From Candidatus Saccharimonadales bacterium (lineage in GTDB: Bacteria; Patescibacteriota; Saccharimonadia; Saccharimonadales; JBBQKK01), in contig JBBQKK010000002.1 in NCBI GenBank assembly GCA_038326785.1, positions 1 to 42,423 of the forward strand: 42,423 nt of DNA, given 5' to 3'. Of the stretch, positions 2,773 through 42,423 are shown one piece after another. The notes beneath the pieces were generated by a model. The model was not told the DNA's origin and searched no databases. It saw only the letters and a program-made list of their open reading frames with translations. Made by a program: the position numbers and the translations under genes. Positions within the stretch are counted from its first letter, which is position 1; the number at the start of each line of letters is the position of its first letter.

Positions 2773-3333
2773 ATGAGCAAAAAATTATCCGGGATGCGAA
2801 TCGCAATTTTGGCAACCGATATGGTAGAAGAGATTGAGTTAGTGGAACCGCGACTAGCACTGGAACGTGCTGGCGCTGAAACAGATTTAATAGCTCCGCA
2901 TGACGGGGAAATCCTCAGTGCTAATCATTACGACAAAAGCGAGGCATACCCCGTAGATGCCACCCTCGAGGAAGTAGATGATATTGATTACGATGCAGTA
3001 TTGCTACCCGGCGGCACTATGAATGCTGATTTTATGCGAACTCATCCGCGAGCACAGCAGTTTGTTCAAGCTATGGATGAAGCGGGGAAGCCGATTGCTG
3101 TTATTTGCCATGGCGCGTGGCTACTTGTGTCGGCGGGCTTGGTTGACGGCCGCACGCTCACTAGTTACCACACACTCTCAGATGACATCATTAATGCTGG
3201 TGGAGACTGGGTAGATAAGCCGGTTGTCGAAGATGAGAACTGGGTAAGTAGTCGCAAACCCGACGATATACCAGCGTTCAACGAGTCGATGGTTACTTTA
3301 TTTGCACAAATTCACCATAGCTTAGCCGTGTAA
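2773..3333 (+). CDS. DJ-1/PfpI family protein (class I glutamine amidotransferase-like fold)
   Basis: It has the KPIAVICHGAWLL nucleophile-elbow motif, the LLPGG motif and a typical size (~186 aa). The ATG at 2773 follows AAGGGGGA; the ORF track starts it at 2758. Confidence 0.85.
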   Translation: MSKKLSGMRIAILATDMVEEIELVEPRLALERAGAETDLIAPHDGEILSANHYDKSEAYPVDATLEEVDDIDYDAVLLPGGTMNADFMRTHPRAQQFVQAMDEAGKPIAVICHGAWLLVSAGLVDGRTLTSYHTLSDDIINAGGDWVDKPVVEDENWVSSRKPDDIPAFNESMVTLFAQIHHSLAV

Positions 3334-3446
3334 ATTAGATATCATCGTTGCTAGCTTCGATGGTGACCCGCTGTAATGTTGACTAAATGTCTAACAAATA
3401 GCATTACCACTTTACACAATGACACATTTGTGCTACTATGTTGTAA

Positions 3447-5261
3447 ATGTCAGAAATACAAAAAGATCATACGGTAAACAAAATTGTCATGGGGGCTACC
3501 TTGGCCGCTGCAGCACTCACGGGTGCTGCCGCTGAGGCTATGAACGATAGTCCCCAGCAAGAAGCTCATAGCCAACACGAGACTGTAATTGATATTACTG
3601 ATACTTCGGAACAGGTACGACCGGAATTAAGTCAGGCGGAGTCATTAATCCCTCAGCAAAATAATAGGGTAGAGGTTCAGAACGAGAATCCTGTCACGGA
3701 ACAGAATATCACCACCACAAATGAGACCTTACAGATAATTTCCTCTCCTAAAGGCTTACCATCTCTCGATTTCTTGCTTGTACCACAGATTGAGGCAGTA
3801 AAGCCGATAGAGCATGCCGAACCGCCGGTTGTCAAAGTTATCAGTCATCCTGCACCTGAAATATCCACCGAACCAGTCGTAGAGGAACAGCCAGTAGACG
3901 AAAAAGAATCGCTTCAGAGTATCGAATTTCATACCATAGTGCCTCAGGAAGTTTCTGAAATCATGGAACATCGCACCGTTCAGGTGCTAGGTGGCTGTTC
4001 AGGCTTCACCATAGAAGATAAGTCAGGTCAGGCTGCCGGCGTTGCGACCGCTAAGCACTGCGGTCTTAGTGATGGCTACATACATGGCAATGATGGCCAG
4101 ACCTATTTGCCGGTCAGCAGGCCACTAGATATTTACTCAGGAAGCAGTGCCGACGCCATGAGTATCAAGGGCCGTCTTGCCCATGCCTACATTTCTGCTG
4201 AAGACGGCTCAGCGCGAGACTTGGCCATTGGTGTATTAGAGGGCAATAACCCCCAGGATGTTCTGAATATGTATAAGCAGAATTCCTTGTCCTCATCCGA
4301 AATGGCGAACCTGCGCCAAGGTGATGTGATGTACCTGTCTGGATGGCCTGGAGATCAAGATAACAATACGGGAACACGGCGCCGACAAGAATTCGCCATG
4401 ACTGTACTGGGTAGCTCGGAGAAACCACATACGGTCAACAGCCAGAAATATTTGTGGACCGCCATCGAGAGTAACGCTGATGGTGCCGAATGTAGCTTCG
4501 GCAATAGTGGTGGCGAAGCTTTTGTAATTCAAGAATCTGTCAGTAGCGATGGTACGAAGCGACTAATGCCTCGATCTGCGGGAGCCCTAGCATGGTTTTA
4601 TGATTTAGCTGGTGATACCTGGATGGCGGACACCCCAGAATATGGCGCTCAAATGCGTGCAGAATTCGAAACTATGTTTGGAGTAGCACTGCCTGATTCC
4701 ATTACCGCGATATGTGGATTTGCGTATGACACGCCAAGCCCTGAGAACAACGGTATTTTAGTAAAAACCGTTGAAAGTGCCGATCTTATCCCAGGTTATG
4801 AATCGCCAGAGGCTAAAATGAACAAGGCGGCACGCGAACACTTTATGGATCCAAGTACTGAGAAAATGATTGCCGATGGCTACTTCGGTATCGGCGGTGG
4901 CAAAGAAGGATCACTAGTACTCGACCGCGTTTACTTATATTTTAATGCGCAAACCGGTCAGGTTACCGTCGGTTCATACTCGGATGAGGATGAAGGCAAT
5001 CTTCGTCTCGCTACGTATAGCAGCTTGGGCGAAGTGCAGCTGTACGACCGCGATGCCACGCCTGGCATAGAAATCACATCAGTCACCGGGCTACTGACGC
5101 CGGATACCGCGACCAAAAGCTTCATAGCTGCAGACGGGACTGCGGGCATCGGACTTGCTAGATTTATAAATACGGCAGATATAACCAGCGAGCTTTATTA
5201 TCTAGGTATAGCTGAGCCAGGTAAGTTGGCTGCGTACCCTGCGAGCCAGAGTTACAAATAG
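3447..5261 (+). CDS. Secreted trypsin-like (S1 family) serine peptidase-like protein with long N- and C-terminal extensions
   Basis: It has an N-terminal hydrophobic signal/anchor and a candidate triad of TAKHCG (His), ARDLAIGVL (Asp) and GNSGGEAF (Ser). TGcTACTAT lies 7 nt upstream of the ATG and there is no SD. Confidence 0.6.
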   Translation: MSEIQKDHTVNKIVMGATLAAAALTGAAAEAMNDSPQQEAHSQHETVIDITDTSEQVRPELSQAESLIPQQNNRVEVQNENPVTEQNITTTNETLQIISSPKGLPSLDFLLVPQIEAVKPIEHAEPPVVKVISHPAPEISTEPVVEEQPVDEKESLQSIEFHTIVPQEVSEIMEHRTVQVLGGCSGFTIEDKSGQAAGVATAKHCGLSDGYIHGNDGQTYLPVSRPLDIYSGSSADAMSIKGRLAHAYISAEDGSARDLAIGVLEGNNPQDVLNMYKQNSLSSSEMANLRQGDVMYLSGWPGDQDNNTGTRRRQEFAMTVLGSSEKPHTVNSQKYLWTAIESNADGAECSFGNSGGEAFVIQESVSSDGTKRLMPRSAGALAWFYDLAGDTWMADTPEYGAQMRAEFETMFGVALPDSITAICGFAYDTPSPENNGILVKTVESADLIPGYESPEAKMNKAAREHFMDPSTEKMIADGYFGIGGGKEGSLVLDRVYLYFNAQTGQVTVGSYSDEDEGNLRLATYSSLGEVQLYDRDATPGIEITSVTGLLTPDTATKSFIAADGTAGIGLARFINTADITSELYYLGIAEPGKLAAYPASQSYK

Positions 5262-15750: not shown

Positions 15751-16422
15751 ATGTGGCAAACAATCGAAAACAAGTTATATAAAAAGTTTACCTTCAAAGA
15801 TTTCAATGAAGCGATGGCGTTTATGAATCGAGTTGCTGAAATTGCCGAGCGGCGAAATCACCACCCGACCATGAAAAACACCTGGAACACTGTAGAATTC
15901 TGGCTCAGTACTCATGATGCAGGCGACACTGTGACAGACAAGGATCAAGAGCTTGCGAAGCAAATCGATGAATTAATCGAGCCAGTGGCCAAGCAGGCAA
16001 CTGCGGTTCAGACAACTGGCATTAAGCTGTATGGTGACGGCGGCTCGAGAGGCAATCCGGGGCCTTCTGCATCCGGGTTTGTGCTGCTGGATAAAGACGA
16101 CAACATTATATTCAAAAAAGGCGTATACCTAGGAATTACAACAAATAACCAGGCAGAGTACCTGTCCTTGAAGTTCGGCCTCGAAGAGGCGCGAAAAATG
16201 GGGGCAAGGGAAGTCGATGTGTTTATGGACAGTATGCTCGTCGTGAACCAGATGAAGGGCATATTCAAGGTAAAGAACCGCGACCTATGGCCAATTTATG
16301 AGTCAATCAAAGACATGTTGAGTGATTTCAAGAAGGTCACCTTCACTCACGTACCACGCGAACTGAACAAATTAGCGGATGCTGAAGTCAACTCTACTTT
16401 AGATGCAGAGCTAAAATCATAA
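15751..16422 (+). CDS. Fusion protein: pterin-4a-carbinolamine dehydratase (PCD/DCoH) domain plus RNase HI domain
   Basis: The N-terminal ~95 aa carry FKDFNEAMAFMNRVAEIAERRNHHP..TH (PCD signature). The C-terminal ~130 aa carry DGGSRGNPGPSASG, NNQAEY, DSMLVVNQ and the LADAEVN acidic residues of type 1 RNase H. Confidence 0.8.
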   Translation: MWQTIENKLYKKFTFKDFNEAMAFMNRVAEIAERRNHHPTMKNTWNTVEFWLSTHDAGDTVTDKDQELAKQIDELIEPVAKQATAVQTTGIKLYGDGGSRGNPGPSASGFVLLDKDDNIIFKKGVYLGITTNNQAEYLSLKFGLEEARKMGAREVDVFMDSMLVVNQMKGIFKVKNRDLWPIYESIKDMLSDFKKVTFTHVPRELNKLADAEVNSTLDAELKS

Positions 16423-16452: not shown

Positions 16453-16990
16453 GCCAGATTATCGGCTAATCGCTTGCCCCTCTTGGCGAACGAATAAGGT
16501 GGCGCACACAGAGTGCAGACTCGTGGCCGCTAAGTATCGCTAATCAAGAGGGGTAAGAGGAAAGTCCGGGCAGCGTAGGGAAAGACAGTCGCTAACGGCG
16601 ACCGGGGGCAACCCTAGGGAAAGTGCCACAGAAACAAAACCGCCCTCGCTCTTCACAGGCGAAGAGCATTTAACATTTTTCAGTTAACATTTAACAGTTG
16701 CGGCAGCAATTTCCATAAATGTAAATTGCTAAATGATACATGAAAATTGCTCATCGCTTGCGATGAGCGGGGGTAAGGGTGAAAAGAGTAGGGTAAGAGC
16801 CTACAGTCCCCTATGGTGACATCGGGGAGTGGTAAACCCTGTCTGCTGCAAGGAGATGGACTCCCGTCGGTTAATTCCGGCTGGTTTCCCGCCAGAGTTC
16901 ATCATCAAGAACCCGCTTGAGCCATCGAGCAATTGGTGGACTAGATAGATGATTAGCTAGAACAGAACCCGGCTTACGGATAATCTGGCG
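16453..16990 (+). ncRNA. rnpB: RNase P RNA, bacterial type A, unusually long (~540 nt)
   Basis: Conserved blocks GAGGAAAGTCCGGGC (P4 5'), ACAGAAACAAAACCGCC, GGGTAAGGGTGAAAAGAGTAGGGTAAGAGCCTAC, GGTAAACCC and ACAGAACCCGGCTTA. P1 pairs CCAGATTATC with GATAATCTGG. TGgTATAAT lies just upstream and a terminator is at 16998-17029. Confidence 0.92.
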
Positions 16991-16997
16991 CATGCAC

Positions 16998-29729: not shown

Positions 29730-32264
29730 ATGGAAAACGAAGAAATTACACCACAAGAAAAAGTAATTGAGCCAACAATCGAGACTACGCACTCAAAGAC
29801 TGTTATTGCGCGTAGCGTTGAATCTGAGATGGAGAGTAGTTATCTCCAGTATTCTATGTCCGTTATTGTGGCTCGTGCACTACCTGATGTTCGTGACGGT
29901 ATGAAGCCGGTACACCGTAGAATTCTATACGTTATGGACAAGAGCGGCCTTCGTTCAACAGGGAAGCACACAAAAAGCGCGCAAATCGTTGGTGAAGTAA
30001 TGGGTAAGTACCATCCTCATGGTGACAGTGCCATCTATGACTCTATGGTACGTTTGGCGCAGCCATTCTCTACGCGCTACATGCTCGTAGACGGGCAAGG
30101 GAACTTCGGTTCTATGGACGGCGATCCAGCGGCTGCTTATCGTTATACCGAAGCACGCATGACGCGAGCATCTGAAGCGCTGTTGGAAGATATAGACAAA
30201 GATACCGTGCCATTCCGAGACAACTTCGATGGATCACAGCAGGAGCCAGAAGTGCTGCCAGCGAAACTACCCAACCTGCTCTTGAACGGACAGATGGGTA
30301 TTGCCGTTGGTATGGCCACTAATATCCCACCACATAACCTAAACGAGCTTGTCGATGCTACGATTGCACAAATCGACAATCCGGATATTACCCTTGATGA
30401 AATCATGGAGCACATGAAGGGTCCTGATTTCCCAACTGGCGGAATCATCTATGGCAAAGAATCGATTAGGACTGCATTTGCCACCGGTAAGGGCGGCGTG
30501 GTTATGCGTGGTGTAGCTAATGTCGAAGAAGTGGGCAAGAAAACCAGAATTATAATTACTGAAATTCCATATCAGGTTAACAAAGCAGGACTTGTTGAGA
30601 AGATAGCTGATCTTGTAAAAGATAAGAAAATCAGCGGTATATCTGACATTCGCGACGAAAGTTCAAGAGGTTCTGTGCGGGTAGTAATCGATCTCAAGAA
30701 AGACGCGTATCCTAAGAAGCTACTGAACCAGCTATATAAATTGACACCACTTCAGATGAAGTTCCACTACAATATGCTGGCGCTTATCGATGGAATCCAG
30801 CCACGCGTACTCGGGGTGCAGGATATTCTGAACGAATATATTAAGCATCGCCAGAATGTAGTACGTCGTCGAACTGAATTTGAACTCAGGAAGGCCCGTG
30901 AGCGCGCCCATATCCTAGAAGGTCTAAAGATTGCACTTGATCATATTGACGAGGTTATTGCGACCATACGTGCGTCACAGACGACTGATGAAGCTCACGT
31001 CAACTTGGTTGCGAAGTTCAACCTGAGTGATATCCAGGCGAAGGCAATCTTGGCAATGCAGCTCCGCACGCTTGCCGGACTTGAACGCCAGAGAATCGAA
31101 GATGAACTTGCAGCGCTATTAAAGACAATTGCTGAGCTTGAAGGCATTCTGGCTGACGTAAAGAAAATTCTTAAGATCATCAAGGATGAGCTTAGGGATA
31201 TGAAGAAGCAGTTTGGGGACGAGCGTCGAACGATGGTTGTACCACAAGAACTTGGCAAGCTGGGTGATGAAGACTTGATTCCAGACGAACAGGTTGTGGT
31301 AACGCTTACATCAGCAAACTACATTAAGCGCAGCCAAATCGCTGAGTACCGCCGTCAAAACCGTGGCGGGAAGGGCAAGCGAGGCATGGTGACGCGCGAA
31401 GAAGACGTCATTGAGCACGTTGTAAATGCTTCAACACATGACTACCTTTTGTTCTTTACGAACAAGGGAAGAGTATTCCGACTGAAGACCTATGAAGTGC
31501 CAGCTACAAACCTGAGCGCCAAGGGAGTTGCGATTGTTAACCTCCTACAGCTACAGCCGGAAGAGAAGGTTAGCTCGGTGATAAACATCAGCAAGCAGAA
31601 TAACGAGGGTAACCTACTTATGTGTACTGTCAGGGGAGTGGTCAAGAAGACGCCTTTTGAACAGTATAAGAATGTACGCCAGAGCGGACTTATCGCTATC
31701 AACCTCGACGAGGGTGATGAGCTAAAGTGGATTCGTATGACTGGTGGTGACAATGAAGTAGTAATCTCTACTTCTCAAGGTCAAGCAATCCGATTCCACG
31801 AAAAGGATTCTCGACCAATGGGCCGCGTATCTAGGGGCGTGCGAGGCATACGTCTACGTCCTGGTGACCAGGTTATAGGCATGGATCTAGTAGAAGAAGG
31901 CTCAACTATATTTGTCATCAGCGAACAGGGCTACGGTAAGCGTACGAAGGTTGCGCAGTTTACGGCACATGCTCGTGGCGGCGTTGGTATACGCTCTGCA
32001 GTGGTGAATAGTAAGACTGGCAAGCTAGTTGGAGTGAAGTCCCTCAAGAAAGATGATGAGCACGAAATTATCATCATATCCAAGCAGGGGCAGACAATAC
32101 GACTAGGCCTCAAGGATATTCCGGAGCTCGGTCGAGCTACTCAAGGAGTCCGCATTATGCGCCTAAATGATGGTGACTGCGTGGTCTCACTGGCACTCGT
32201 TGAAAAGACCGTGGCTGAAGATGGTGAAGAAATTCTTTTGCCAGCCGAAGACATCGAACAATAG
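29730..32264 (+). CDS. gyrA: DNA gyrase subunit A
   Basis: [29 protein letters not shown] and [10 protein letters not shown] (catalytic Tyr), with C-terminal beta-pinwheel repeats. Confidence 0.96.
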
Positions 32265-32655: not shown

Positions 32656-34217
<1,562 letters not shown>

Positions 34218-34394
34218 TAGGGAGAAACCCAGAGCTATCTGTTTACAGATAGACTCGAGGTCGGTCTCGTAACCAATGCTCGAACTTGATTGGTTGCATT
34301 TTAAAGAGATTAAGTTAGACGTTTGATTTGCACTACTAAGATTTTCAAAAAGCTTTTAATACAGATGACTTTTGCCTAGCGTATAATTATTTAT

Positions 34395-34673
34395 ATGACA
34401 GAACATATTTCGACAGCTATTAATCCCGAAGACGAGTCTCATATATCTGAGGCACAACTAGACGATTGGTTGTCGGTTACTTTTGGCGATTTTAATGACG
34501 AAGTATACGCGCGGCAAGAGATGCACGACGGCTCAGTTGCGGTTATTCATGCGACCCATAGGGGAGTAGTATCCAGAGGCTTAGCTTTCTTAAGAGGCCA
34601 AAGGCCCCAGCCAAAAATACGAACAATTAACGATGCTATATCCCCGCCATATTCGAACACTGAAATACATTAA
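34395..34673 (+). CDS. Hypothetical 92-aa acidic protein encoded inside the 16S-tRNA spacer
   Basis: TATAAT (34382-34387) lies 7 nt upstream of the ATG and there is no SD. No similarity recognised. The hairpin at 34728-34753 follows. Confidence 0.35.
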   Translation: MTEHISTAINPEDESHISEAQLDDWLSVTFGDFNDEVYARQEMHDGSVAVIHATHRGVVSRGLAFLRGQRPQPKIRTINDAISPPYSNTEIH

Positions 34674-34725
34674 TCTTTTAGCAGTTTTAGTTTTTGGTCG
34701 AAAAATAATTTTAATTATAAGTTAA

Positions 34726-34925
34726 GGCCCCCTGACACCGAAATGTCAGGGGGCTGGGGGGAGATGCCGGAGGGGCGGAGAAGCCTTGTTTGCAATCAGC
34801 CGAGGCCGATCAAAAGTTCTTAGCCCTCTAGGGGCGTTGCTGGGCGCCACATTCGGCGCTGATCTGCCGCTGGTTCAGCGGCGCCCAGCTGGGTCCCCCG
34901 ACCCGACGTACAGACCCAAGGAGGT
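34726..34925 (+). other. GC-rich, highly structured ~200-bp island of unknown function
   Basis: It contains CCCCCTGACA-CCGAAA-TGTCAGGGGG, nested helices CTGGGCGCC...GGCGCCCAG enclosing GCCGCTG-GTT-CAGCGGC, and GGGTC-CCC-GACCC. Both flanks are AT-rich. Confidence 0.4.
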
Positions 34926-35002
34926 CTAGTAATAATATTATCACAGCTATTCCTGAATAGACTTATAGCTTAATTTTAGATACAATACCCCTGTTCTTTT
35001 AA

Positions 35003-35037
35003 GGGTTTGTAGCTCAGCTGGTTAGAGCACGTCAGTG
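35003..35037 (+). pseudogene. 5' half (to the anticodon loop) of a second tRNA-Ile-like gene
   Basis: GGGTTTGTAGCTCAGCTGGTTAGAGCACGTCAGTG matches the intact tRNA-Ile at 30 of 35 positions. Its acceptor strand is complementary to 35276-35282. Confidence 0.7.
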
Positions 35038-35058
35038 TTATTTAACAATTTGGGGTAA

Positions 35059-35135
35059 GGGCACGTAGCTCAGCTGGTTAGAGCGCGTCACTGATAATGA
35101 CGAGGTCCCTGGTTCGAGTCCAGGCGCGCCCACCA
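35059..35135 (+). tRNA. tRNA-Ile (anticodon GAT)
   Basis: Anticodon arm CGTCA-CTGATAA-TGACG, T arm CCTGG-TTCGAGT-CCAGG and an encoded CCA. The acceptor GGGCACG/CGCGCCC contains an A5.C68 mismatch. Confidence 0.88.
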
Positions 35136-35231
35136 AATGGTTAAATGTATCAGGTATTTTATCCTGATATAATGACGTATTTAACTTGCTTGCGCGAAGA
35201 TAAATCTTCTTGCAAGGCCAAGCAAGGAAAA

Positions 35232-35288
35232 CGTAAATGTCCCCCGGACATTTACGGGTCGCAGGTTCGAGTCCTGCCAAACCCACCA
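35232..35288 (+). pseudogene. 3' half of the split tRNA-Ile-like gene, preceded by an 11-bp junction hairpin
   Basis: CGTAAATGTCC-CCC-GGACATTTACG, then GGTC, T arm GCAGG-TTCGAGT-CCTGC, acceptor CAAACCC, A and CCA. Confidence 0.7.
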
Positions 35289-35291
35289 TAT

Positions 35292-35368
35292 GGGGCATTA
35301 GCTCAGCTGGTTAGAGCACCTGCTTTGCAAGTAGGGGGTCGTCGGTTCGAATCCGACATGCTCCACCA
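35292..35368 (+). tRNA. tRNA-Ala (anticodon TGC)
   Basis: Acceptor GGGGCAT/ATGCTCC with a G3.U70 pair, anticodon loop TTTGCAA, T arm GTCGG-TTCGAAT-CCGAC and an encoded CCA. Confidence 0.93.
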
Positions 35369-35393
35369 TCGCAAAGGCACGGCCTTTGGGACA

Positions 35394-35440
35394 AGAACCT
35401 AACGATAGAATGAATCTGCCGTTAGGTTCTTTGTCTTTGT
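35394..35440 (+). terminator. Terminator ending the 16S-tRNA transcription unit
   Basis: An 11-bp stem (AGAACCTAACG with CGTTAGGTTCT) followed by TTGTCTTTGT. Confidence 0.7.
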
Positions 35441-35626
35441 GGTCGGCCTCTGCTCCTCCGTTTTGTAGAGCTCCCCACAAAACGGAATAAACCAAAATCG
35501 CAGCTGCGCATGAAATAGAATAGACCGAGCGTCAAGGTTCTATATCTGAGAAAAAGGAGATGGGTAAGTATTGACTAAATTAAGCAAAAGTAGTATAATC
35601 TAGCTAAATCTAAAGGAGTTCGTAAG

Positions 35627-37339
35627 GTGAGGAACAATCCCCTAAGCGCAGTTCGCAAGTTTATTCCTATATTTTTAGCGTCTTTTCTTATTGCCAGCCC
35701 TAGTCTGGTCGGTAACCTTATTTTTCCGATTCAACATGGCTCCCCTCAATCTGTAAGCAAGTACCAAAAAAACAAGCTACACCTTAAGATTGATCCTGCC
35801 AGCGATGTAACTTTGATAAACGGTAGTTTTAGCGGTAATCCTGCTGACCAAGTTACCCAGCTTAACCAAATAATTAGCTCTGGCGGCAAAATCAAAGCCG
35901 AAAAGCTAAAAAATACTGCCGGCCAATCTGATATTGCCAAAAAACTAGATAACGCCCTAAACGGTTACTTTGTAATCACCTTTAAGGGCGATACTGATAT
36001 TAATAGTGTTATTTCCCAGCTAAAAGGCTTATCTATAGTAGAAACAGCTTACGGCGAACCTACGGCCGCGCCAGCGCCATCTAGCCCTAGTTTTGTTAAC
36101 TTACAGAGCTATTTGCAGACTGCTCCGACTGGCATTAATTCTACATCTGCCAAGGCTTACCCTGGTGGCAATGGTTCTAACGTGCGGATTTTTGATATTG
36201 AATATAGCTGGAACGTTAACCACGAAGATATTACCAAGGCCCGTACGGCACTAATAGCTAACGGCACGCCCAATGACCCGTTTAGTGATAATAATCACGG
36301 TACAGCCGTAATGGGGATACTTGTCGCTGATGATAATGCTTATGGCGTCACAGGAGCGGCTTCTGGCGCGTCTTTGGGGCTTATCAATGTTAATGATGTT
36401 GAACGCGGTTACGACCCGGTAGGCGCCCTGAGTGCGGCTGCTGCTTACGCCAAGCCCGGAGATGTCATCAATATAGACCAACAGACCTGGGGCCCTACTA
36501 CTGATACTTACGATTTTGTTCCTGTTGAATGGATCCCCGAAGTCTACGATGCCATCAAAACCCTTACAGCTAACGGTGTTATTGTGGTGGAATCGGCTGG
36601 TAATGGCTACCAGAACCTAGATGACCCAACCTATTACGGAACCTCCTTCCCGATGGGCAAGGCTGATTCTGACGCGCTGATAGTAGGAGCTGGCGAAAAT
36701 TGTTATACACCTAAACTATCTCGCATCAGTTACAGTGACTACGGCAAGCGCGTAAACCTGCAAGGCCCTGGCGATTGCGTTGCCACAACTGGTTGGTACG
36801 GCGATTTATACAGCGCTGGTGGCGTAAACGCTTACTACACCCAAAGCTTTAACGGAACCAGCTCAGCGACTCCGGTCGTTTCGGCCGCTGCGGCCGATGT
36901 TAGTTCGGCCTATAAGGCCAAAAACGGGATATTTGCTACTGTTGCTCAAATCCGCGACATTCTATCGCGCGATTCTACCGCCCAAGACACCTCAGCTAGT
37001 GGCCACATCGGTCCGATGCCGGACCTTGATAAGGCCATGAAAGAAATTAGTGCTACTACATCTGGCGATATTACGCCTCCTAGCACGCCTCAGAATCTAA
37101 AAGCTATTCTAAGTAAACAAGGTAAACCAGTGTTAGCTTGGAGCGCTTCTACCGATAACGTCAAGGTTTCTGGCTACAAGGTCTATAGAAATGGCGTCTA
37201 TTACACTACTGTTGGGGCTACCAGTTTTACAGATACTTCAGTAAGCAGACGCACCACTTATAAGTATCAAGTCCAGGCAATAGATACATCGGGCAACAAT
37301 TCGGCTCTATCGGCTCAAGTTTCTATAACTACTAGGTAA
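35627..37339 (+). CDS. Secreted subtilisin-like (S8) serine peptidase with a C-terminal fibronectin type III domain
   Basis: GTG start after AAAGGAG, a signal peptide, and the triad context FDIEYSW (Asp), NNHGTAVMG (His) and GTSSATP (Ser). The C-terminal part PPSTPQNL...YKVYRNG...YKYQVQAIDTSGN is FN3-like. Confidence 0.85.
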   Translation: MRNNPLSAVRKFIPIFLASFLIASPSLVGNLIFPIQHGSPQSVSKYQKNKLHLKIDPASDVTLINGSFSGNPADQVTQLNQIISSGGKIKAEKLKNTAGQSDIAKKLDNALNGYFVITFKGDTDINSVISQLKGLSIVETAYGEPTAAPAPSSPSFVNLQSYLQTAPTGINSTSAKAYPGGNGSNVRIFDIEYSWNVNHEDITKARTALIANGTPNDPFSDNNHGTAVMGILVADDNAYGVTGAASGASLGLINVNDVERGYDPVGALSAAAAYAKPGDVINIDQQTWGPTTDTYDFVPVEWIPEVYDAIKTLTANGVIVVESAGNGYQNLDDPTYYGTSFPMGKADSDALIVGAGENCYTPKLSRISYSDYGKRVNLQGPGDCVATTGWYGDLYSAGGVNAYYTQSFNGTSSATPVVSAAAADVSSAYKAKNGIFATVAQIRDILSRDSTAQDTSASGHIGPMPDLDKAMKEISATTSGDITPPSTPQNLKAILSKQGKPVLAWSASTDNVKVSGYKVYRNGVYYTTVGATSFTDTSVSRRTTYKYQVQAIDTSGNNSALSAQVSITTR

Positions 37340-37342
37340 GTC

Positions 37343-39463
37343 TTAGAACAAAAAGGTCAGTAGCCTAGTGCCAACGGCGTGCAGGGCGCTGCCTATCGGC
37401 TTTGTAGCGATAGTGCGCTTGCTCCAGCCTTTGCGAGCGGCTGCGGTGGTAGAGAACAACCAGGCAAAGCCTAAGATACCAATGCCAGCGGCAATAATCG
37501 TAAATGAATCATTGGCGGCTTGAGTGCCTGTGGGCGGGCTTGTTCCAGTAGTCTTGCCTAACAGGAATTTAGCCTGATGATCGTTAACGGCACTATTGCC
37601 GGCTACGGCGCTTAGAACTTGGCTGTTAACTTTAGCGAAAGCAGTAGTGTTGCCCTGAGGCACAAACTGGAATACTTTTACATTCTGTACGGCACCAGCA
37701 GGCCCACCACCACCTTTTCCGCCCACTGGGTCACCAGCGGACGTATTTACGCCAAAACTGCCGCTCCAGCTGCCAAAAACGTTGATGAACAAAATGCCGA
37801 GCCAATCGCTTAGGTTCAAGGTTGAGCCTTCTATGTTGGTCAAATCCACGCTGGTTGAGGCATTACCGGTAGTGGCGTTACCGCCCGTGGTGTTTTTGGT
37901 AACGCCGGCGTTACCGCTGGCGGCGCTAACATTGATATTGTTATTGATTGCCTGGTTGGTGGTGGAATTTAGGTTAGCTGTGGCGTTGTTGGTGCTATTG
38001 GTGGTCAGGTTGCCTCCTAGAGCTGCGGCGGTGGAGCCGGTGGGCGAATTAACAAGCATACCTACCCAGTTACCCAGTACGTTTACAAAAACTAGCAGGC
38101 AATCTTTGCCGATGATAGTGCTGCCAGTTAGGTTAAGAACATTTACCTTATTGCTGGCATTACCGGTAGTGGCGTTGCCGCCCGTGGTGTTACTACTTAC
38201 AGCGGCATTACCGGTAGTGGCAGTGCCAGTAATGTTGTTGTGTATAGACTGATTGTTGGTTACGTTGGCGTTTAGAGCCGCGTTATTAACGCTTGATAGA
38301 TCAACCGTGGCATATGGTCCGCTAGATGCAATCAAGCTGTTAAGTGCATCCTGAGGCAATAAAATATCTCCGTTTAAGTTGCCATTAATGTTAATTACGC
38401 CCACAAACGATTTACCTGCACCAACAACCGAATTAACTATGTTAGTTATACCGGCTAGTACTGCGGCGTTACCACTGGTGGCGTTGCCGCCAGTGGTGTT
38501 ACTGGCAATAGTGGCATTGCCGCTAGCTGCCGCCAGGTTGATATCGTTATTTATCACTCCGCTAGCTTGATTGTTAACTGTTAAGGTATTGTTAGTCTGA
38601 GAGTCGGCCGTGGTGTTAGAGCCAGGGCCCAGGTTGCTGGGGTTTAACAAAATATCGCCGTTAATATTACCGTTTATGTTCATAGTAAAGGTAGTTAGGT
38701 TATTGCCTTGCAGGCCGCCAATCGATGATTGCAGAGCGTTAATTACCTTGGCCACATCTTGGGCGTTGCCGCTGGCGGCGTTGCCGCCCAGGGTGTTAAA
38801 GGTTACCGAAGCATCACCAGTTTGGGCTAGCTGGCTCAGGTTGTTGCTAATAGATGCATTGTAAAAACCGTTAAAAACGCCGTTAAAGTTATTTGAGTTA
38901 GATAGGTTGCTGGTGGAATCTGGACCAGTGTTATTTATACCAGCGGCGCTAAGCGGACTATTAAGCAAGAGCGCACCAGCTGGTGGGGCGGTAACCTCTA
39001 CTACATTGGGCACATACTTGCCGGCGGCGGCATCATATACCCAATTAACAGTATCCCAGCGTCCCGTGGTGGGATTATAGCTATAGGTTTGGGTAGTTTT
39101 GGGGCTGGTTTGTTTGGTAACGGGATTCCATGTAAAGAAGTCGTTTTCCCATAAGCCAGTAGACGGGTTATACATATAAGTGCTAGACGCCGCTCCACTG
39201 GGCTGGGTCGGCCCGGTGGAGGTTGTGGGTGGGGCTGGAGGAGGCACCGGAGCTGGGCTAGGATCGGGCGTAGGCGCCGGGGCTGGAGTTATTGAAGACG
39301 TGTTTGTAGGATCGCTAGGACTGCTGGATGTTGTGGTAGAGGGGTCGGTAGTAGGCGGCAAGGTATCAGCCAAAGCCGCGGCGGGGTAGGATGTTAGTAG
39401 CACTAGCGAAAGTACAAACAGGGTAGTTTGCCTTAGGACCGTTTTGAGCTTATTAATTATCAT
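37343..39463 (-). CDS. Secreted, C-terminally membrane-anchored Asn/Gly/Thr-rich repeat protein (four ~100-aa modules, beta-solenoid-like)
   Basis: Signal peptide, Thr/Pro/Ser-rich linker, and four modules containing ..SGNA.V..NTTGGNATSGNA...(I/L).N.. followed by a hydrophobic VNV.GN(W/L).G block. A C-terminal TM helix is followed by a basic tail. Confidence 0.75.
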   Translation of the reverse strand: MIINKLKTVLRQTTLFVLSLVLLTSYPAAALADTLPPTTDPSTTTSSSPSDPTNTSSITPAPAPTPDPSPAPVPPPAPPTTSTGPTQPSGAASSTYMYNPSTGLWENDFFTWNPVTKQTSPKTTQTYSYNPTTGRWDTVNWVYDAAAGKYVPNVVEVTAPPAGALLLNSPLSAAGINNTGPDSTSNLSNSNNFNGVFNGFYNASISNNLSQLAQTGDASVTFNTLGGNAASGNAQDVAKVINALQSSIGGLQGNNLTTFTMNINGNINGDILLNPSNLGPGSNTTADSQTNNTLTVNNQASGVINNDINLAAASGNATIASNTTGGNATSGNAAVLAGITNIVNSVVGAGKSFVGVININGNLNGDILLPQDALNSLIASSGPYATVDLSSVNNAALNANVTNNQSIHNNITGTATTGNAAVSSNTTGGNATTGNASNKVNVLNLTGSTIIGKDCLLVFVNVLGNWVGMLVNSPTGSTAAALGGNLTTNSTNNATANLNSTTNQAINNNINVSAASGNAGVTKNTTGGNATTGNASTSVDLTNIEGSTLNLSDWLGILFINVFGSWSGSFGVNTSAGDPVGGKGGGGPAGAVQNVKVFQFVPQGNTTAFAKVNSQVLSAVAGNSAVNDHQAKFLLGKTTGTSPPTGTQAANDSFTIIAAGIGILGFAWLFSTTAAARKGWSKRTIATKPIGSALHAVGTRLLTFLF

Positions 39464-39648
39464 TTAGGGTTATATCTCCAAAGTATTGTTAGCATTAGCC
39501 CACCTGTGGGAGAGTTTGGTTGCAACCAAACTCTCCCTTTTTGCAGAAGTTTAAAGAACCGATTCCTTTTATTGTTCGCGAGGCGCCTCTTTAAAAGTGC
39601 TCCAAGCAGAAATCTTTTTTACTATCTAATGTAATGTCTTATCTTAAA

Positions 39649-40242
39649 TTAGTTAGTGATGCTCAAAGTTACGCTTGAGCTGTTGCTGTTGCTTGCGTCA
39701 CCACTAGTAGCGCTGCCACCAGATGTGTTTTCGGTAACACTTGCGTTGCCGCTCTGAGAAAATTGCTTGTTGTTGCTACTAACAGAAACATTGTTGTTGT
39801 TAGTAACATCAATGTTTACAGTGTTCTTGTTGGTGATCTCGTTGTGAGATTCAGGACCGGTCAAATCGATGCTGCCGCCTTGGCTGCCATCGCCGAAACC
39901 GCTCATGCAACCACAGCCAGCACCACCGCTGTTATCAACGCTAAGATCAGCGCTAAAACTGTTGTCGTTCATGGCGCTACCGCTAGTAGCGTCACCGGCA
40001 GTAGTGTTTTCGTGAACCTTGGCGCTGCCAGTCTTAGAAAACTGGTCGTTGTTGCTGCCCACTGTAACATTGTTGTTGTTAGTCTGGTCCAAATCAAAAC
40101 TATTAGTAGTCTTTACTTTGTTCCAAGATTCCGGACCGGTGTCCGTGATTGAACTGCTGGCACCTACGGTGCCGGCTAGACCCGCGGCAGCAATGCTAAG
40201 GCTGCTTGCCACTGCGACGGTCGTTTTTACGATTTTGTGCAT
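39649..40242 (-). CDS. Small secreted protein with two ~75-aa Asn/Ser/Gly-rich repeats related to the 706-aa protein
   Basis: AGGGGAG SD and a signal peptide. The repeats are I(T/D)xTGPES(W/H)N...NNNNV(T/S)V(G/S)SNNxQFSxxG(S/N)AxVxENTxxGxATSGxA, separated by a GGAGCGC Cys-containing linker. Confidence 0.75.
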   Translation of the reverse strand: MHKIVKTTVAVASSLSIAAAGLAGTVGASSSITDTGPESWNKVKTTNSFDLDQTNNNNVTVGSNNDQFSKTGSAKVHENTTAGDATSGSAMNDNSFSADLSVDNSGGAGCGCMSGFGDGSQGGSIDLTGPESHNEITNKNTVNIDVTNNNNVSVSSNNKQFSQSGNASVTENTSGGSATSGDASNSNSSSVTLSITN

Positions 40243-40373
40243 TTTACTCCCCTTTCATTGAGAGTTAATTTATATTGCTGCTCGGGCTTCTGCTCACCCG
40301 ACTTTGCTAGAAAACCTCCACCTAAGTTTTCCCGCAAAGTCGATTGACCATCGTAGGTAATAAAGCCTTTAAC

Positions 40374-40928
40374 TTATGGGCTACTATCCGTATAAACATT
40401 AGTCGTAGAGTGTGACCGGACTCTTAAATGGCTATTGGTGTTCTGGGTACCTCCGCTTGTAGAAGAAGATGTGCTATTGGTAACGGTAACATGGGTAGTC
40501 TGGCCATCGCTGGTGGTAACCGTTTTGTTTAGCATTCCTTCATCCGGCACCTCAAAATCTTGGCCGTCAACGTTGACGCTAGCCGATGAGTCCCCAGCCT
40601 TAGCCCCACTATCATTACTGCTTGTTATGGATTCGGTGCTAACACTGCCTTGATGGTTATTAACATTATTTTGGCCCTGCGCATCGGCGGCCGAAGAACT
40701 TGAGGATACTAAGTTAAGTCCAGTACTAGACGCGGAACTGCCCGTCCATACTAAAGCGGACAAAGGAGCAACTAAAAAGGCCAGCGCGGCGGCTGACCAA
40801 AAAGCGACCCTTTTATATATAGAAGCGTGCTGGATTGAACTAACAGGACTAGATAATTGAGAAGCAATCAAAGCCCGGCGTGCGTGCCAGCTAGTCTTGC
40901 TTGTCAATCCGATTACTCGTATCTTCAT
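40374..40928 (-). CDS. Secreted/anchored Ser/Thr-rich hypothetical protein
   Basis: GGGAGG SD 7 nt upstream, an N-terminal basic segment followed by a hydrophobic anchor, and a Ser/Thr/Asn-rich remainder. Confidence 0.6.
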   Translation of the reverse strand: MKIRVIGLTSKTSWHARRALIASQLSSPVSSIQHASIYKRVAFWSAAALAFLVAPLSALVWTGSSASSTGLNLVSSSSSAADAQGQNNVNNHQGSVSTESITSSNDSGAKAGDSSASVNVDGQDFEVPDEGMLNKTVTTSDGQTTHVTVTNSTSSSTSGGTQNTNSHLRVRSHSTTNVYTDSSP

Positions 40929-41621
40929 CTAGTACCTCCCTAAATAATAATAACCTCGCACTTGAACGTCCCTGTTATCGTATCCGCACTCCACCCGGGT
41001 ATTTGTTCTGAGTCGAAGTATATCAACATGTATATGCATAAACAGCTTCTTTAGGTTAACGATAATAATGATTTTGCTTTTTTAACAGACATATTTTCGT
41101 ATACTTTTTCACAGCAGTTTTGTCTTGACAACATTTGATCACCTGGACTCGACATAGCTTTGCTCCTAACTATAAAATTGCGGGATTCCAACTGCTTATA
41201 CTTAAGCTAAATGATTGCGCTTAGAACCAGCTTAAAAACTCGCAGCGACATAAAAAGTCTAACCGCGTATGAATAGTATATGCAGTAAAAAATATCACAA
41301 GAACAATAAAAGCTGGGCAACTTTCAACTATATGGGGAGCCAAAAACTTGAATGTCCGAGCTGAAGCATAAGTATGTCCATTATTGTTATATTTATAACA
41401 ACGATTATTATGAAATAAACAGTTAAAATATATAAAAAATTTTTAAATATCATTGTTTTATTAACAATAAAGTATGATGCACAAATAAACTAATAACCAA
41501 AAACGCTTTTGGTTCGCTTAAAAATCGCGGCATAAATTTATTATTCGAAGCACTAACTAACAGCTTGGTCCTAAACTCAAAATTGCACAGCTGTAGAGCA
41601 TAGGCATACAATGTATTATAT

Positions 41622-42386
41622 ATGAGCAATAGCCCGGAGGATCGGCCAACCAACTTACGAAAAGCCTGTACTTTTGAAGCTTTTAATATATCTGGAGAAA
41701 GACTCCGCGAGCTATCGGCCAACGTGGGATTTTCTTTAGACAATCAAATAAATCAAAGCAGGGAAATGGAAGATTCGAACCCGACACTGTATGCCTATAT
41801 TGATGTCCGCGGAGAGCTGGCTCAGCAACGTTTTTTTCAGCGGGCGCGTGACTATACTAGTTATAGTGAAGACCAAAAATCACAAAAAAAGGATCTAATA
41901 GTAGAGCACTTTTATACAGGAGCTTTTATGACTTTTGCACTATTACAGGAGGCTGCCAGAGAGGCGAATGTTTTAATTCCGGAGGTGGATTTTCCTGGCG
42001 ATGCTTATAATCCCGACAATATATCCGGAGGATATTTAGACACGGTCTTGGAGGAGAGTCAGAGAGCTTTTTTGGTGCGTGAACAAATGCCAAGGCTTTT
42101 TTTTGATGGTGTTTTAGCATTATTAGAAAAACGTACCAGAAAATCAGAGCCGGAAGTTTTCGATTTAGTTACTATGGCGAGATCTGCTGGAAGGTCTACG
42201 ATATTTAATAATGAAGCCTTTGCCGCCAGTTATTTTCTGGCCGGTTCGGCAGAGGTTGTGTTGCCCATTGAAGCTGCAGCCCAAAGACTTGCCAAGCAAA
42301 TGGCAACCGTAACCCAAGTTGGTGAGTTGGAATACTTATTCAAGCAGCCAAGCTGGGGCGAAGACAGCCCGAAGCCGCTTAAGTAA
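41622..42386 (+). CDS. Hypothetical cytoplasmic protein
   Basis: A 254-aa ORF with no TM segment or signal peptide. No family recognised. It follows a ~700-bp AT-rich intergenic region. Confidence 0.55.
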   Translation: MSNSPEDRPTNLRKACTFEAFNISGERLRELSANVGFSLDNQINQSREMEDSNPTLYAYIDVRGELAQQRFFQRARDYTSYSEDQKSQKKDLIVEHFYTGAFMTFALLQEAAREANVLIPEVDFPGDAYNPDNISGGYLDTVLEESQRAFLVREQMPRLFFDGVLALLEKRTRKSEPEVFDLVTMARSAGRSTIFNNEAFAASYFLAGSAEVVLPIEAAAQRLAKQMATVTQVGELEYLFKQPSWGEDSPKPLK

Positions 42387-42423
42387 TACCTCTTGCAGAA
42401 GCCTATAATAGGGGTGTATTCTA

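Follow-up and report, generated by a model that had tools for sequence, protein, structure and literature searches.

The nested tRNA-Ile locus belongs to the rRNA region of a Saccharibacterial genome and lies on contig JBBQKK010000002.1 of the Candidatus Saccharimonadales bacterium assembly GCA_038326785.1. By 'the window' we mean the whole stretch of this contig that was analysed, 42,423 nt in length; only these 42 kb of the genome could be searched. At this locus an intact tRNA-Ile(GAU) gene (the inner gene) is surrounded by the pieces of a second, interrupted tRNA-Ile gene (the outer gene), and a tRNA-Ala gene follows. The features are, in order:

34958-34986, + strand: promoter-like site TAGACT-17-TACAAT (9/12 match), just upstream of the outer gene
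34973-34997: block TACAATACC..GTTCTT, homologous to the spacer-tRNA leader in relatives
35003-35034, + strand: outer tRNA-Ile piece 1 (p1; tRNA positions 1-31), with the acceptor 5' strand GGGTTTG, the D arm, A26 and the anticodon-stem 5' strand CGTCA
35035-35058, + strand: left part of insert 1, a boxA-like leader block GTTATTTAACAATTTGG (35036-35052) and then GGTAA
35040-35146, + strand: 14-nt inverted repeat ATTTAACAATTTGG / CCAAATGGTTAAAT, 13/14, bracketing the inner tRNA
35059-35135, + strand: inner intact tRNA-Ile(GAU), with an A5.C68 mismatch; the presumed functional gene
35146-35171, + strand: 9-bp hairpin TGTATCAGG / CCTGATATA, spanning the junction between insert 1 and piece 2
35164-35177, + strand: outer tRNA-Ile piece 2 (p2), CTGATATAATGACG, with the anticodon loop CTGATA[TA]A and the anticodon-stem 3' strand TGACG (tRNA positions 32-43 plus a 2-nt insertion)
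35178-35255, + strand: insert 2, which separates tRNA positions 43 and 44 by 78 nt, with a composite hairpin (about 35184-35228) and a perfect 11-bp one (35232-35256)
35256-35288, + strand: outer tRNA-Ile piece 3 (p3), with the variable loop GGGTC, the T arm GCAGG-TTCGAGT-CCTGC, the acceptor 3' strand CAAACCC, A73 and CCA
35292-35368, + strand: tRNA-Ala(UGC), 3 nt past the outer CCA and 76/77 identical to the tRNA-Ala of the relative L001

Insert 1 comprises 129 nt (35035-35163) and lies between tRNA positions 31 and 32; the two inserts sit at a stem/loop and a stem/variable-loop boundary, respectively. The outer gene and tRNA-Ala(UGC) probably share one transcription unit, and the ORFs running over the inserts are only antisense or overlapping artefacts of the ORF listing.

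The first-pass annotation of this DNA described the outer gene as two halves separated in the anticodon loop. While the nested topology stands, the division into two halves does not: the outer gene consists of three pieces in order, p1, p2 and p3. What had been said of its two ends is largely borne out. Positions 35003-35037 match the first 35 nt of the inner gene at 30 of 35 positions, the acceptor strands GGGTTTG (35003-35009) and CAAACCC (35278-35284) are complementary throughout, the T arm is perfect, and both A73 and CCA are present; the two ends are parts of one gene, with the acceptor differences from the inner gene compensated between the outer pieces. The anticodon stem fared differently. 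The 3' strand claimed for it, TTACG (35252-35256), pairs at only 4/5 positions and forces a 4-nt variable loop, the ensemble probability of the claimed stem pairs is 0.0, and the two-piece join is called by the tRNA search as tRNA-Val(GAC), not tRNA-Ile. The true partner strand lies inside the supposed insert, where p2 pairs 6/6 with the ACGTCA of p1. When p1, p2 (less the TA) and p3 are joined, the resulting 77 nt are called as tRNA-Ile(gat) with every stem perfect; the extra TA makes the outer anticodon loop 9 nt long. A loose form of the p2 pattern (CTGAT N1-5 TGACG) occurs at four unrelated places across the two strands of the 42-kb window, which puts the chance that one of them falls, correctly oriented, into the 210-nt gap at about 0.01. 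The predicted uninterrupted (empty-site) sequence is GAGCACGTCACTGATAATGACGGGGTCGCAGG.

The joined outer pieces and the inner tRNA-Ile are identical at 65/77 positions. Ten of the 12 differences make up five compensatory base pairs and the remaining two fall at positions 26 and 44; no stem is broken and the loops are identical (hypergeometric P = 0.028 for at most 2 differences at unpaired positions). Functional orthologues show just such a pattern: the acceptor and T stems are likewise the only places at which the inner gene, its L001 counterpart and the consensus of the clade differ. As the differences are compensatory and the stems flawless, we infer that the outer gene worked as a tRNA up to its disruption. 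We judge it dead now because of the 2-nt insertion in its anticodon loop and the two separate inserts. In situ it is called neither by ARAGORN nor by Rfam, and the intron mode of ARAGORN (0-400 nt) does not find it either. With clear homology, no contiguous cloverleaf and a functional isoacceptor at hand, the outer gene has the characteristics of a tRNA pseudogene.

The inner gene is a genuine tRNA-Ile(GAU), as previously proposed: it is called by ARAGORN, scores 68.9 bits in Rfam and does contain the A5.C68 mismatch. Its nearest counterpart is the tRNA-Ile of L001, from which it differs at 8 positions, all in the acceptor stem. If the outer gene is the resident one, this result is surprising, for it is the inner gene and not the outer that stands nearest to L001. 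The perfect 11-bp hairpin reported at the second junction is also present (35232-35242/35246-35256, loop CCC), but its right arm starts 2 nt before the claimed 3' half.

The 10-mer TTAACAATTT, which had been taken as the mark of a cassette, does occur twice in the window, at 193-202 and 35042-35051 (2 matches versus 0.21 expected; 3/100 shuffles reach 2), but it matches the rrn boxA antiterminator instead. As a cassette signature it was ruled out, being a boxA-like rRNA-operon motif that is present in relatives. The window sequence TTTAACAATTT (35041-35051) matches the E. coli rrn boxA-spacer, ugcucuuuaacaauuua (PMC2724277), over 11/11 consecutive nt, and the surrounding leader block is 15/17 identical to GTTGTTTAACAGTTTGG of the relative L173, a score that 0/500 shuffles reach. 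In relatives, ACTTAACAATT is located 125-285 nt upstream of the 23S rRNA, which is the classical position of the spacer boxA. Matching the consensus inside an rRNA operon spacer, the window motif is a putative boxA element. It differs from rrn boxA in that it precedes a tRNA, with whose trailer it also pairs, and in that its second copy in the window precedes tRNA-Asp, outside any recognised rRNA operon.

Relatives were reached via homologues of the S8 peptidase and GyrA. The closest ones share 78% (S8), 92% (GyrA) and 93.6% (16S) identity with the window, and exact-protein look-ups returned no other contig with an identical S8 peptidase or GyrA. The nearest relatives available are 91-94% identical in 16S, a distance that puts the recency and the direction of any event beyond checking; among the relatives examined we detected no empty site, no donor and no GGGTTTG/CAAACCC sequences (the contig of L176 ends before the tRNAs). 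The leader block of insert 1 is homologous to the spacer-tRNA leader in L173, L010 and L018, and the block upstream of p1 is homologous to the adjoining part of that same leader, with a score reached by 0/500 shuffles in the case of L173 and by 1/500 in the case of L010 and L018. For insert 2, compared with the Ile-Ala or post-Ile spacers of relatives, the best match is to L169 (1/300 shuffles reach the score); this is marginal, fails correction for 9 tests, and the homology was not accepted.

Four relatives (L173, L169, L088 and L018) carry tRNA fragments around their intact spacer tRNAs, 5' fragments upstream and 3' fragments downstream, which shows that the locus is prone to rearrangement. 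L173 is nested in a similar way to the window, with positions 1-19 of tRNA-Ile, then a tRNA-Ile, and then positions 66-77 of tRNA-Ile. The fragment is exactly identical to the intact gene in L088 (tRNA-Ile, 21/21), L018 (tRNA-Ala, 22/22) and L173 (tRNA-Ile, 19/19 and 12/12), whereas the tRNA-Ala fragment of L169 has decayed and drifted from its tRNA, indicating that such fragments do drift. The fragments break at differing tRNA positions (19/20, 43/44, 55/57 and 65/66). No tRNA fragments were found in L001, L010 or L005; in the tRNA-Ile region of the loci that were read, they are absent from L169 and of differing extent elsewhere.

We favour, at a probability of roughly 60%, the explanation that the outer gene is a recent rearrangement scar, formed by non-homologous insertion of a spacer segment bearing a replacement tRNA-Ile, and that its remnants are transcribed and discarded. 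The outer sequence would have been a working tRNA-Ile(GAU) gene until recently, when inserted DNA split it into three collinear pieces. Insert 1 would be Saccharibacterial rRNA-spacer DNA in which the boxA-like leader block is followed by a whole tRNA-Ile(GAU), diverged in sequence, and then by a short trailer, with the hairpins between positions 43 and 44 forming insert 2. The junctions carry inverted copies of neighbouring sequence (the left arm of the 9-bp hairpin is an inverted copy of anticodon-loop sequence), which suggests illegitimate recombination or template switching and not a site-specific enzyme. The donor may have been the homologous locus of another Saccharibacterium, through uptake of external DNA, or a diverged paralogue. 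Such an event would have been survivable only since the insert supplied a working copy of an essential, probably single-copy tRNA; because only a rescued insertion survives, the disrupt-and-replace look of the locus would reflect selection on the outcome and not a property of a dedicated element. The array would be transcribed from the promoter-like site upstream of p1, RNase P and 3' processing would free the inner tRNA-Ile and the tRNA-Ala, and the outer pieces would be discarded as leader and spacer RNA, never being joined. The leader homologies, the similar trailers after the two CCA ends and the fragments beside intact tRNAs in relatives also speak for it. On the other side, the outer stems, with all 21 base pairs intact, and the perfect junction hairpins, which we take as signs of recency, may equally reflect selection on RNA structure. 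If the locus is a one-off scar, as seems likely, its value lies mainly in being an annotated curiosity and in cautioning those who annotate tRNAs in CPR rRNA operons.

An alternative that we consider possible, though unlikely, is that replication slippage or template switching duplicated parts of the resident locus in a series of tandem steps, and that the copies diverged later. Copying would have proceeded to position 31, jumped back to the leader, run through tRNA-Ile to 2 nt into tRNA-Ala, and jumped back to position 32. This route accounts for the leader block after p1, for the palindromic junctions and for the likeness of the trailers that follow the two CCA ends (AATGG after the inner gene, TATGG after the outer, the latter leading into the start of tRNA-Ala). 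Furthermore, whenever a tandem duplication takes in only one end of a gene, a truncated copy results, either a 5' part upstream of the intact copy or a 3' part downstream of it. L173, L169, L088 and L018 show just this, and in three of them (L173, L088 and L018) fragment and gene are identical; partial tandem duplication is plausibly the origin of these simpler fragments. For the window, however, an identical start demands 12 substitutions, including five compensated pairs, in a functional inner gene and none that breaks a stem in the outer one, and this divergence is highly improbable unless the inner gene was later replaced by another allele. In addition, the TACAAT block is missing from the second leader copy, and no clear boxA block is seen in the first. 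The simple decaying tandem duplication offered by the first-pass annotation conflicts both with the nested order and with the five compensatory pair differences.

It is similarly doubtful that the nested layout is non-accidental, being either a disrupt-and-replace cassette that invades tRNA-Ile or an outer shell selected as an RNA scaffold; if it were, the fragments in the four relatives would reflect a clade-wide mechanism and not random scars, and an arrangement that proved conserved or mobile would amount to a new element class or precursor architecture in CPR bacteria. The former version, which we regard as rather improbable, posits a dedicated non-autonomous cassette with terminal inverted repeats that targets the tRNA-Ile anticodon arm, carries its own tRNA-Ile and is mobilised in trans. 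Insertion of DNA with its own replacement tRNA, as the first-pass annotation suggested, does fit the nested topology, the complete tRNA within the insert and the divergence of the two genes; moreover, the 14-nt inverted repeat exactly brackets the inner tRNA, L173 has its tRNA-Ile nested in a similar way, and in L003 and L090 the anticodon loop of a tRNA is interrupted by a group I intron with an HNH gene (Rfam, 67.5 bits), which implies that tRNA-targeting endonucleases exist in the clade. It is the dedicated, mobile nature of the cassette that finds no support. As regards the hallmarks of a MITE-like or IS-derived miniature element, neither the inverted repeat, nor the hairpin, nor the cassette has a second copy in the 42-kb window; the flanks GTGTT and GTATC are not a target-site duplication, and none was found at the locus; and the window contains no homologue of the HNH gene. 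The left arm of the repeat is part of the boxA-like leader block common to relatives in the same operon and need not be an element terminus, and the right arm starts in the inner CCA; the two arms are predicted to form a leader-trailer stem (pair probability about 0.65). The differing break positions in relatives argue against a common target.

Patterns for the outer half, the junction and the inner gene gave no relevant hit in the metagenome or viral collections. A 32-mer of the outer 5' half matched nothing (0 hits) among metagenome contigs. Among viral contigs, both the outer 3' piece and the 5' half of the inner gene likewise had 0 hits, and the only hits of a 26-mer of the outer 5' piece were unrelated phage tRNAs, namely tRNA-Lys, tRNA-Val and one of suppressor type with the anticodon CTA. 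ORFs in the gaps between 16S and the tRNAs (window positions 34395-34673, and L001, L018, L088 and L169) belong to no Pfam or PHROG family and so give no hint of a mobile-element gene, and the inserts, at only 129 and 78 nt, hold no integrase, recombinase or other cargo. A link to the intron of L003 was considered and rejected: ACAATTTGG, just after the 5' piece, is shared with L003 but is the common TTRACAATT box, and the window has nothing that corresponds to the intron core or to the HNH gene.

Fragments left by integrating elements beside intact tRNA genes offer a comparison. In Caldiarchaeum, an element that encodes a recombinase separates the intact tRNA-Thr gene from a 5' fragment located 1.8 kb upstream (PMC3293823). 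The window likewise has a partial copy beside an intact isoacceptor, foreign DNA between and function preserved, and the fragments in L088, L018 and L173 match their intact genes exactly, as att-site direct repeats do. The window differs in that its outer pieces are not near-identical to the intact gene (30/35 for the 5' piece; 78% over 37 nt for the 3' piece against the inner 3' end): both broken ends are present, and each has its cognate partner in the other and not in the intact gene. Furthermore, the inserts lack a recombinase gene, and the intact gene lies wholly inside the insert instead of being a hybrid restored at an att site.

Selection on the outer gene as a tRNA-shaped scaffold of acceptor, D, anticodon and T helices in a functional nested precursor seems to us very unlikely; such a scaffold might, for instance, act as a platform for RNase P or for processing, insulate the folding of the spacer tRNAs, or amount to a stable tRNA-like RNA. 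All outer helices are intact and predicted to form, and folding of the 286-nt transcript gives probabilities of 0.6-1.0 for its outer acceptor, T and anticodon stems, and so the outer gene may be functional in this capacity rather than a scar. The outer CCA is encoded, 3 nt before tRNA-Ala, and L169 and L173 keep a 5' tRNA-Ala-like leader and hairpin (GGCGCAGCTTGCTGCA) in an otherwise unalignable spacer. However, a fold z-score such as that of the nested structure (-5.2) is expected for any stretch holding a tRNA and perfect hairpins, a single sequence offers no covariation, and the fragments are missing from L001, L010 and L005, variable in the tRNA-Ile region and drifted in the case of the L169 tRNA-Ala.

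An assembly artefact, in which a chimeric contig blends two strain alleles of tRNA-Ile, is highly improbable. The nested structure is known from a single metagenomic contig without read-level support, and two tRNA-Ile alleles together with a 19-nt D-arm repeat present in three copies could confuse a de Bruijn graph; yet the junctions are not at this shared repeat, the pieces keep strict order, the palindromes are junction-specific, and comparable fragments recur in the assemblies of a relative from different samples and archives (L173 and L174, ENA and JGI, identical over 451 nt including the tRNA fragment).

Bacterial group I introns are found in the anticodon loops of tRNA-Leu and tRNA-fMet of cyanobacteria and of tRNA-Ile(CAU) of Azoarcus. 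The window shares with them an interruption of the anticodon arm and collinear exons, and the L003/L090 intron is a genuine case in the clade; still, the window has no catalytic core, and in place of a single loop insertion it has two inserts, of which neither separates loop nucleotides and one consists mostly of a tRNA. Its outer anticodon loop has also gained 2 nt. At the gathering threshold, Rfam reported only tRNAs and 16S rRNA plus noise in the window. At E<=10, no intron or ribozyme was detected in 34150-35700 (the noise being tmRNA, YrlA and plastid models on the T arm), including the catalytic core P3-P9 of RF00028 (Intron_gpI). Protein-dependent tRNA splicing by the bulge-helix-bulge endonuclease (EndA) is archaeal and eukaryotic and not known in bacteria. 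While the collinear pieces jointly encode a complete tRNA-Ile, the earlier suggestion that the outer gene has introns, or is a split tRNA, and that its parts are united in the RNA is barely credible: no ribozyme is at hand, the inserts at 31/32 and 43/44 and the 2 loop nt would all need removal, RNase P and 3' processing of the complete tRNA within the first 'intron' would sever the precursor, and the intact isoacceptor makes a spliced product needless. The nested tRNA-Ile is most likely a rearrangement scar rather than a spliced or split gene.

Whether interrupted and split tRNA genes arose by late insertion of mobile DNA or descend from ancestral split genes has long been debated. Archaeal split, multi-intron and permuted tRNA genes are described from Nanoarchaeum, Caldivirga and Thermoproteales (PMC3218864). 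Their pieces, which are the sole copy of the tRNA in question, are united by the bulge-helix-bulge endonuclease together with a ligase, whereas the window is bacterial, with an intact isoacceptor present and no joining mechanism evident. Common to both are a tRNA in two or three pieces, broken at the anticodon arm or close to it, and neighbouring sequence that is GC-rich or palindromic. Read as a rearrangement scar, the locus would be a bacterial snapshot of a tRNA gene apparently soon after its disruption, with helices intact and breaks at the borders of the anticodon arm; it would illustrate how an essential single-copy tRNA gene can tolerate an insertion when rescued by an isoacceptor within the inserted DNA, and how tRNA 'halves' can arise without any splicing system.

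The outer gene, the interrupted tRNA-Ile, begins 790 nt beyond the 16S rRNA on a complete metagenomic contig (42,423 nt; a member of the Saccharibacteria/Saccharimonadales) that stops shortly before the position where relatives have the 23S rRNA.

Features of the window
16529-16993, RNase P RNA, bacterial type A (205.7 bits)
29730-32264, gyrA
32656-34216, 16S rRNA
35003-35034, outer tRNA-Ile, piece 1 (tRNA positions 1-31)
35035-35163, insert 1 (129 nt): GTGTTATTTAACAATTTGGGGTAA, inner tRNA-Ile and a 28-nt trailer
35164-35177, outer tRNA-Ile, piece 2 (positions 32-43, plus TA)
35178-35255, insert 2 (78 nt): two hairpins
35256-35288, outer tRNA-Ile, piece 3 (positions 44-76 plus CCA)
35292-35368, tRNA-Ala, 3' of the outer tRNA-Ile
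35627-37339, S8 peptidase gene

The first-pass annotation had read the outer gene as two halves of one gene, and its account of the ends, which are cognate to each other, stands: 35003-35037 is identical to the inner gene, the intact tRNA-Ile(GAU) at 35059-35135, at 30 of 35 positions, the GGGTTTG/CAAACCC acceptor strands pair completely, and the perfect T arm (GCAGG-TTCGAGT-CCTGC) is followed by A73 and CCA. The A5.C68 mismatch of the inner gene and a perfect 11-bp hairpin (35232-35256) were likewise confirmed. The number of pieces was wrong, as the true anticodon-stem partner lies inside the supposed insert. TTACG (35252-35256), taken for the 3' strand of that stem, pairs at just 4 of 5 positions, leaves a 4-nt variable loop and has a partition-function probability of 0.0; ARAGORN identifies the sequence joined from two pieces as 'tRNA-Val(GAC)'. 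When 35003-35288 is folded, ACGTCA of the 5' piece pairs with TGACGT at 35173-35178 (probability ~0.6), and directly 5' of this partner lies CTGATATAA, which is the tRNA-Ile anticodon loop CTGATAA lengthened by two nucleotides. With the partner strand and loop at 35164-35177, the outer gene therefore consists of three collinear pieces, which when joined without the TA give 77 nt that ARAGORN calls tRNA-Ile(gat), all stems perfect. A loose piece 2 pattern has four unrelated occurrences within the window, so the chance of one in the right orientation in the 210-nt gap is ~1%.

Between the outer and inner genes, 12 of 77 positions are different: three pairs in the acceptor stem and two in the T stem, all compensated, plus positions 26 and 44; the loops, D arm and anticodon arm are identical. 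Among relatives, functional tRNA-Ile genes likewise vary only in the acceptor and T stems, and thus the outer and inner genes both diverged under tRNA constraint. Later decay in the outer gene is almost nil, the TA insertion being its sole sign. The compensated differences and near-absent decay exclude the suggestion that the outer gene is a simple decaying duplicate of the inner one, and imply that a fairly recent event brought together two functional tRNA-Ile(GAU) genes that had diverged long before. With 8 differences, the inner gene is nearest to that of the related locus L001; the outer gene is about equidistant from all others (10-13 differences).

The inner tRNA is bracketed by a 14-nt inverted repeat (13/14 matching), and palindromes span both of the right-hand junctions (35146-35171; 35232-35256). 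A promoter-like site, TAGACT-17-TACAAT, is predicted 5' of piece 1; the block around it, TTTTAGATACAATACCCCTGTTCTT, shares homology with the leader that precedes the first spacer tRNA of the related loci L173, L010 and L018. Insert 1 begins with GTTATTTAACAATTTGG, which is homologous to the L173 block directly 5' of that leader block (15/17 identical, 0/500 shuffles). AATGG follows the inner CCA, and TATGG, running into tRNA-Ala, the outer CCA. Given these leader blocks and trailers, the inserted unit appears to be copied from a locus of this type and not from unrelated DNA: insert 1 looks like a Saccharibacterial spacer tRNA-Ile together with its leader and the opening bases of the gene that follows. 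The TTAACAATTT 10-mer, also present 5' of tRNA-Asp as first reported, was rejected as a cassette mark: it is a boxA-like rrn operon motif matching the E. coli rrn boxA-spacer ugcucuuuaacaauuua (PMC2724277), and ACTTAACAATT occurs in relatives 125-285 nt 5' of the 23S rRNA. The boxA-like AATTAACAATTTAG at 191-204, 14 nt 5' of tRNA-Asp (218-294), lies near the contig start and not within any recognised rRNA operon.

By 16S identity the closest relatives are L173 (93.6%), L169 (92.4%) and L001 (91.1%). Order and orientation of the spacer tRNAs vary among the window and six relatives (16S identity 88-94%): the window, L010 and L018 have Ile-Ala on the plus strand, L169 and L173 have Ala-Ile, and in L001 and L088 both genes are inverted. 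Such variation suggests that the 16S-23S interval has been inverted and rearranged repeatedly, and the spacer tRNA locus is clearly rearrangement-prone in this clade. In several relatives tRNA fragments, sense and antisense, adjoin the intact spacer genes.

Partial spacer tRNA copies in relatives
L173, 14496-14515, 14837-14855, 14889-14900 and 15057-15068, partial tRNA-Ala/tRNA-Ile copies
L169, about 16301-16372, drifted tRNA-Ala 5' fragment
L088, 1652-1672 and 1758-1769, Ile[57-77] and Ile[44-55], 3' of tRNA-Ile
L018, 4149-4170, Ala[56-77], 3' of tRNA-Ala

L173 carries Ala[1-20] 5' of tRNA-Ala, and its tRNA-Ile is nested between Ile[1-19] (5') and Ile[66-77] (3'), resembling the window's layout. 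Throughout these four loci, 5' fragments lie upstream and 3' fragments downstream of the intact gene, the exact product of a tandem duplication overlapping one gene end; a gene-restoring insertion gives the same. L173 and L174, from different samples and archives (ENA and JGI), are identical across one such fragment, so structures of this kind cannot be put down to assembly noise.

We propose, with a probability of about 0.6, that a homologous spacer segment with a diverged tRNA-Ile, from another Saccharibacterium or a diverged paralogue, was inserted into the resident tRNA-Ile by illegitimate recombination or template switching, breaking its anticodon arm. The insertion would have survived because the insert supplied an essential tRNA; a complex template-switch event would fit the palindromic junctions and insert 2. 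The outer pieces may now be transcribed as leader and spacer RNA from the upstream promoter-like site and discarded as RNase P and 3' processing release tRNA-Ile and tRNA-Ala.

Self-duplication by serial slippage, an unlikely alternative, accounts well for the flanks, but does not explain why the live copy shows 12 differences of the constrained type and the dead copy none, unless the inner allele was replaced later. Somewhat less probable is the dedicated mobile disrupt-and-replace cassette of the first-pass annotation: while the nested topology and inverted repeat agree with it, the inserts lack a target-site duplication, the window holds no further copy of the inverted repeat or hairpin, a common target position is missing, and no nearby ORF has a mobile-element domain. 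Searches found no match to the outer 5' half in a metagenome collection, nor to the outer 3' piece or inner 5' half in viral contigs, where a generic 5' 26-mer matched unrelated phage tRNAs only. Selection for a tRNA-shaped RNA scaffold, with which the intact helices, all predicted to form, agree, is very doubtful, as covariation is absent and the fragments in relatives follow no consistent pattern. An assembly chimera is highly improbable, and joining of the pieces at the RNA level scarcely credible: the intron-containing or split tRNA envisaged earlier is not supported, with no match to Rfam intron or ribozyme families (34150-35700, E<=10) and no ARAGORN hit in intron mode.

The locus is a real, unusual feature, best described as tRNA gene remnants of a new variant. 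It is similar to the tRNA fragments left by integrating elements (PMC3293823), but has both ends of the broken gene, cognate to each other and not to the intact gene, and has no recombinase. Likeness to group I intron tRNAs is limited to the position of interruption, and the window does not pass the test that defines the family. There is also a likeness in form to archaeal split and multi-intron tRNAs, but a joining system is not evident. A genuine intron case occurs in relatives, in L003 (4952-5628) and L090 (about 2830-3505), where tRNA(CAU), directly 5' of the S8 peptidase homologue, is broken after U33. The group I intron (~600 nt; Rfam RF00028, 67.5 bits) has an antisense HNH endonuclease ORF (L003 4941-5369; PHROG HNH families, E=7e-17); ARAGORN misses the interrupted tRNA.

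Several further observations concern the interval. The gap between 16S and spacer tRNAs is long (0.8-2.7 kb), with lineage-specific ORFs (window 34395-34673; L001 1997-2581; L018 986-3728; L088 613-1521; L169 15852-16172) that match no Pfam or PHROG family; that of L001 has internal repeats and probably encodes a secreted protein. In the window this gap holds a 200-nt island of stacked hairpins (34727-34930; 64-67% GC; fold z-score -4.0), including a perfect 11-bp hairpin (34727-34754), with no Rfam match and no homologue among the loci retrieved; its stretch 34734-34753 shows 80% complementarity to 35241-35260, around the start of outer piece 3. A leader hairpin, GGCGCAGCTTGCTGCA, is conserved in L169 and L173, and an antisense D-arm piece in the L173 leader has a predicted 14-bp pairing with the D arm of the intact tRNA-Ile. 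The operons of L169 and L173 are compact, in the form 16S-Ala-Ile-23S-5S. Elsewhere (window 35627-42423, L001, L005, L010, L018, L088, L092 and L093) the stretch from the spacer tRNAs (if the contig reaches them) to the 23S rRNA contains protein-coding genes, always including an S8 peptidase, so that part of the clade has an interrupted rRNA operon. The window's S8 peptidase has its own strong predicted promoter (35571-35599, 11/12 match). Finally, the window's RNase P RNA is longer than its model (465 nt vs 367 positions) and therefore probably carries insertions.
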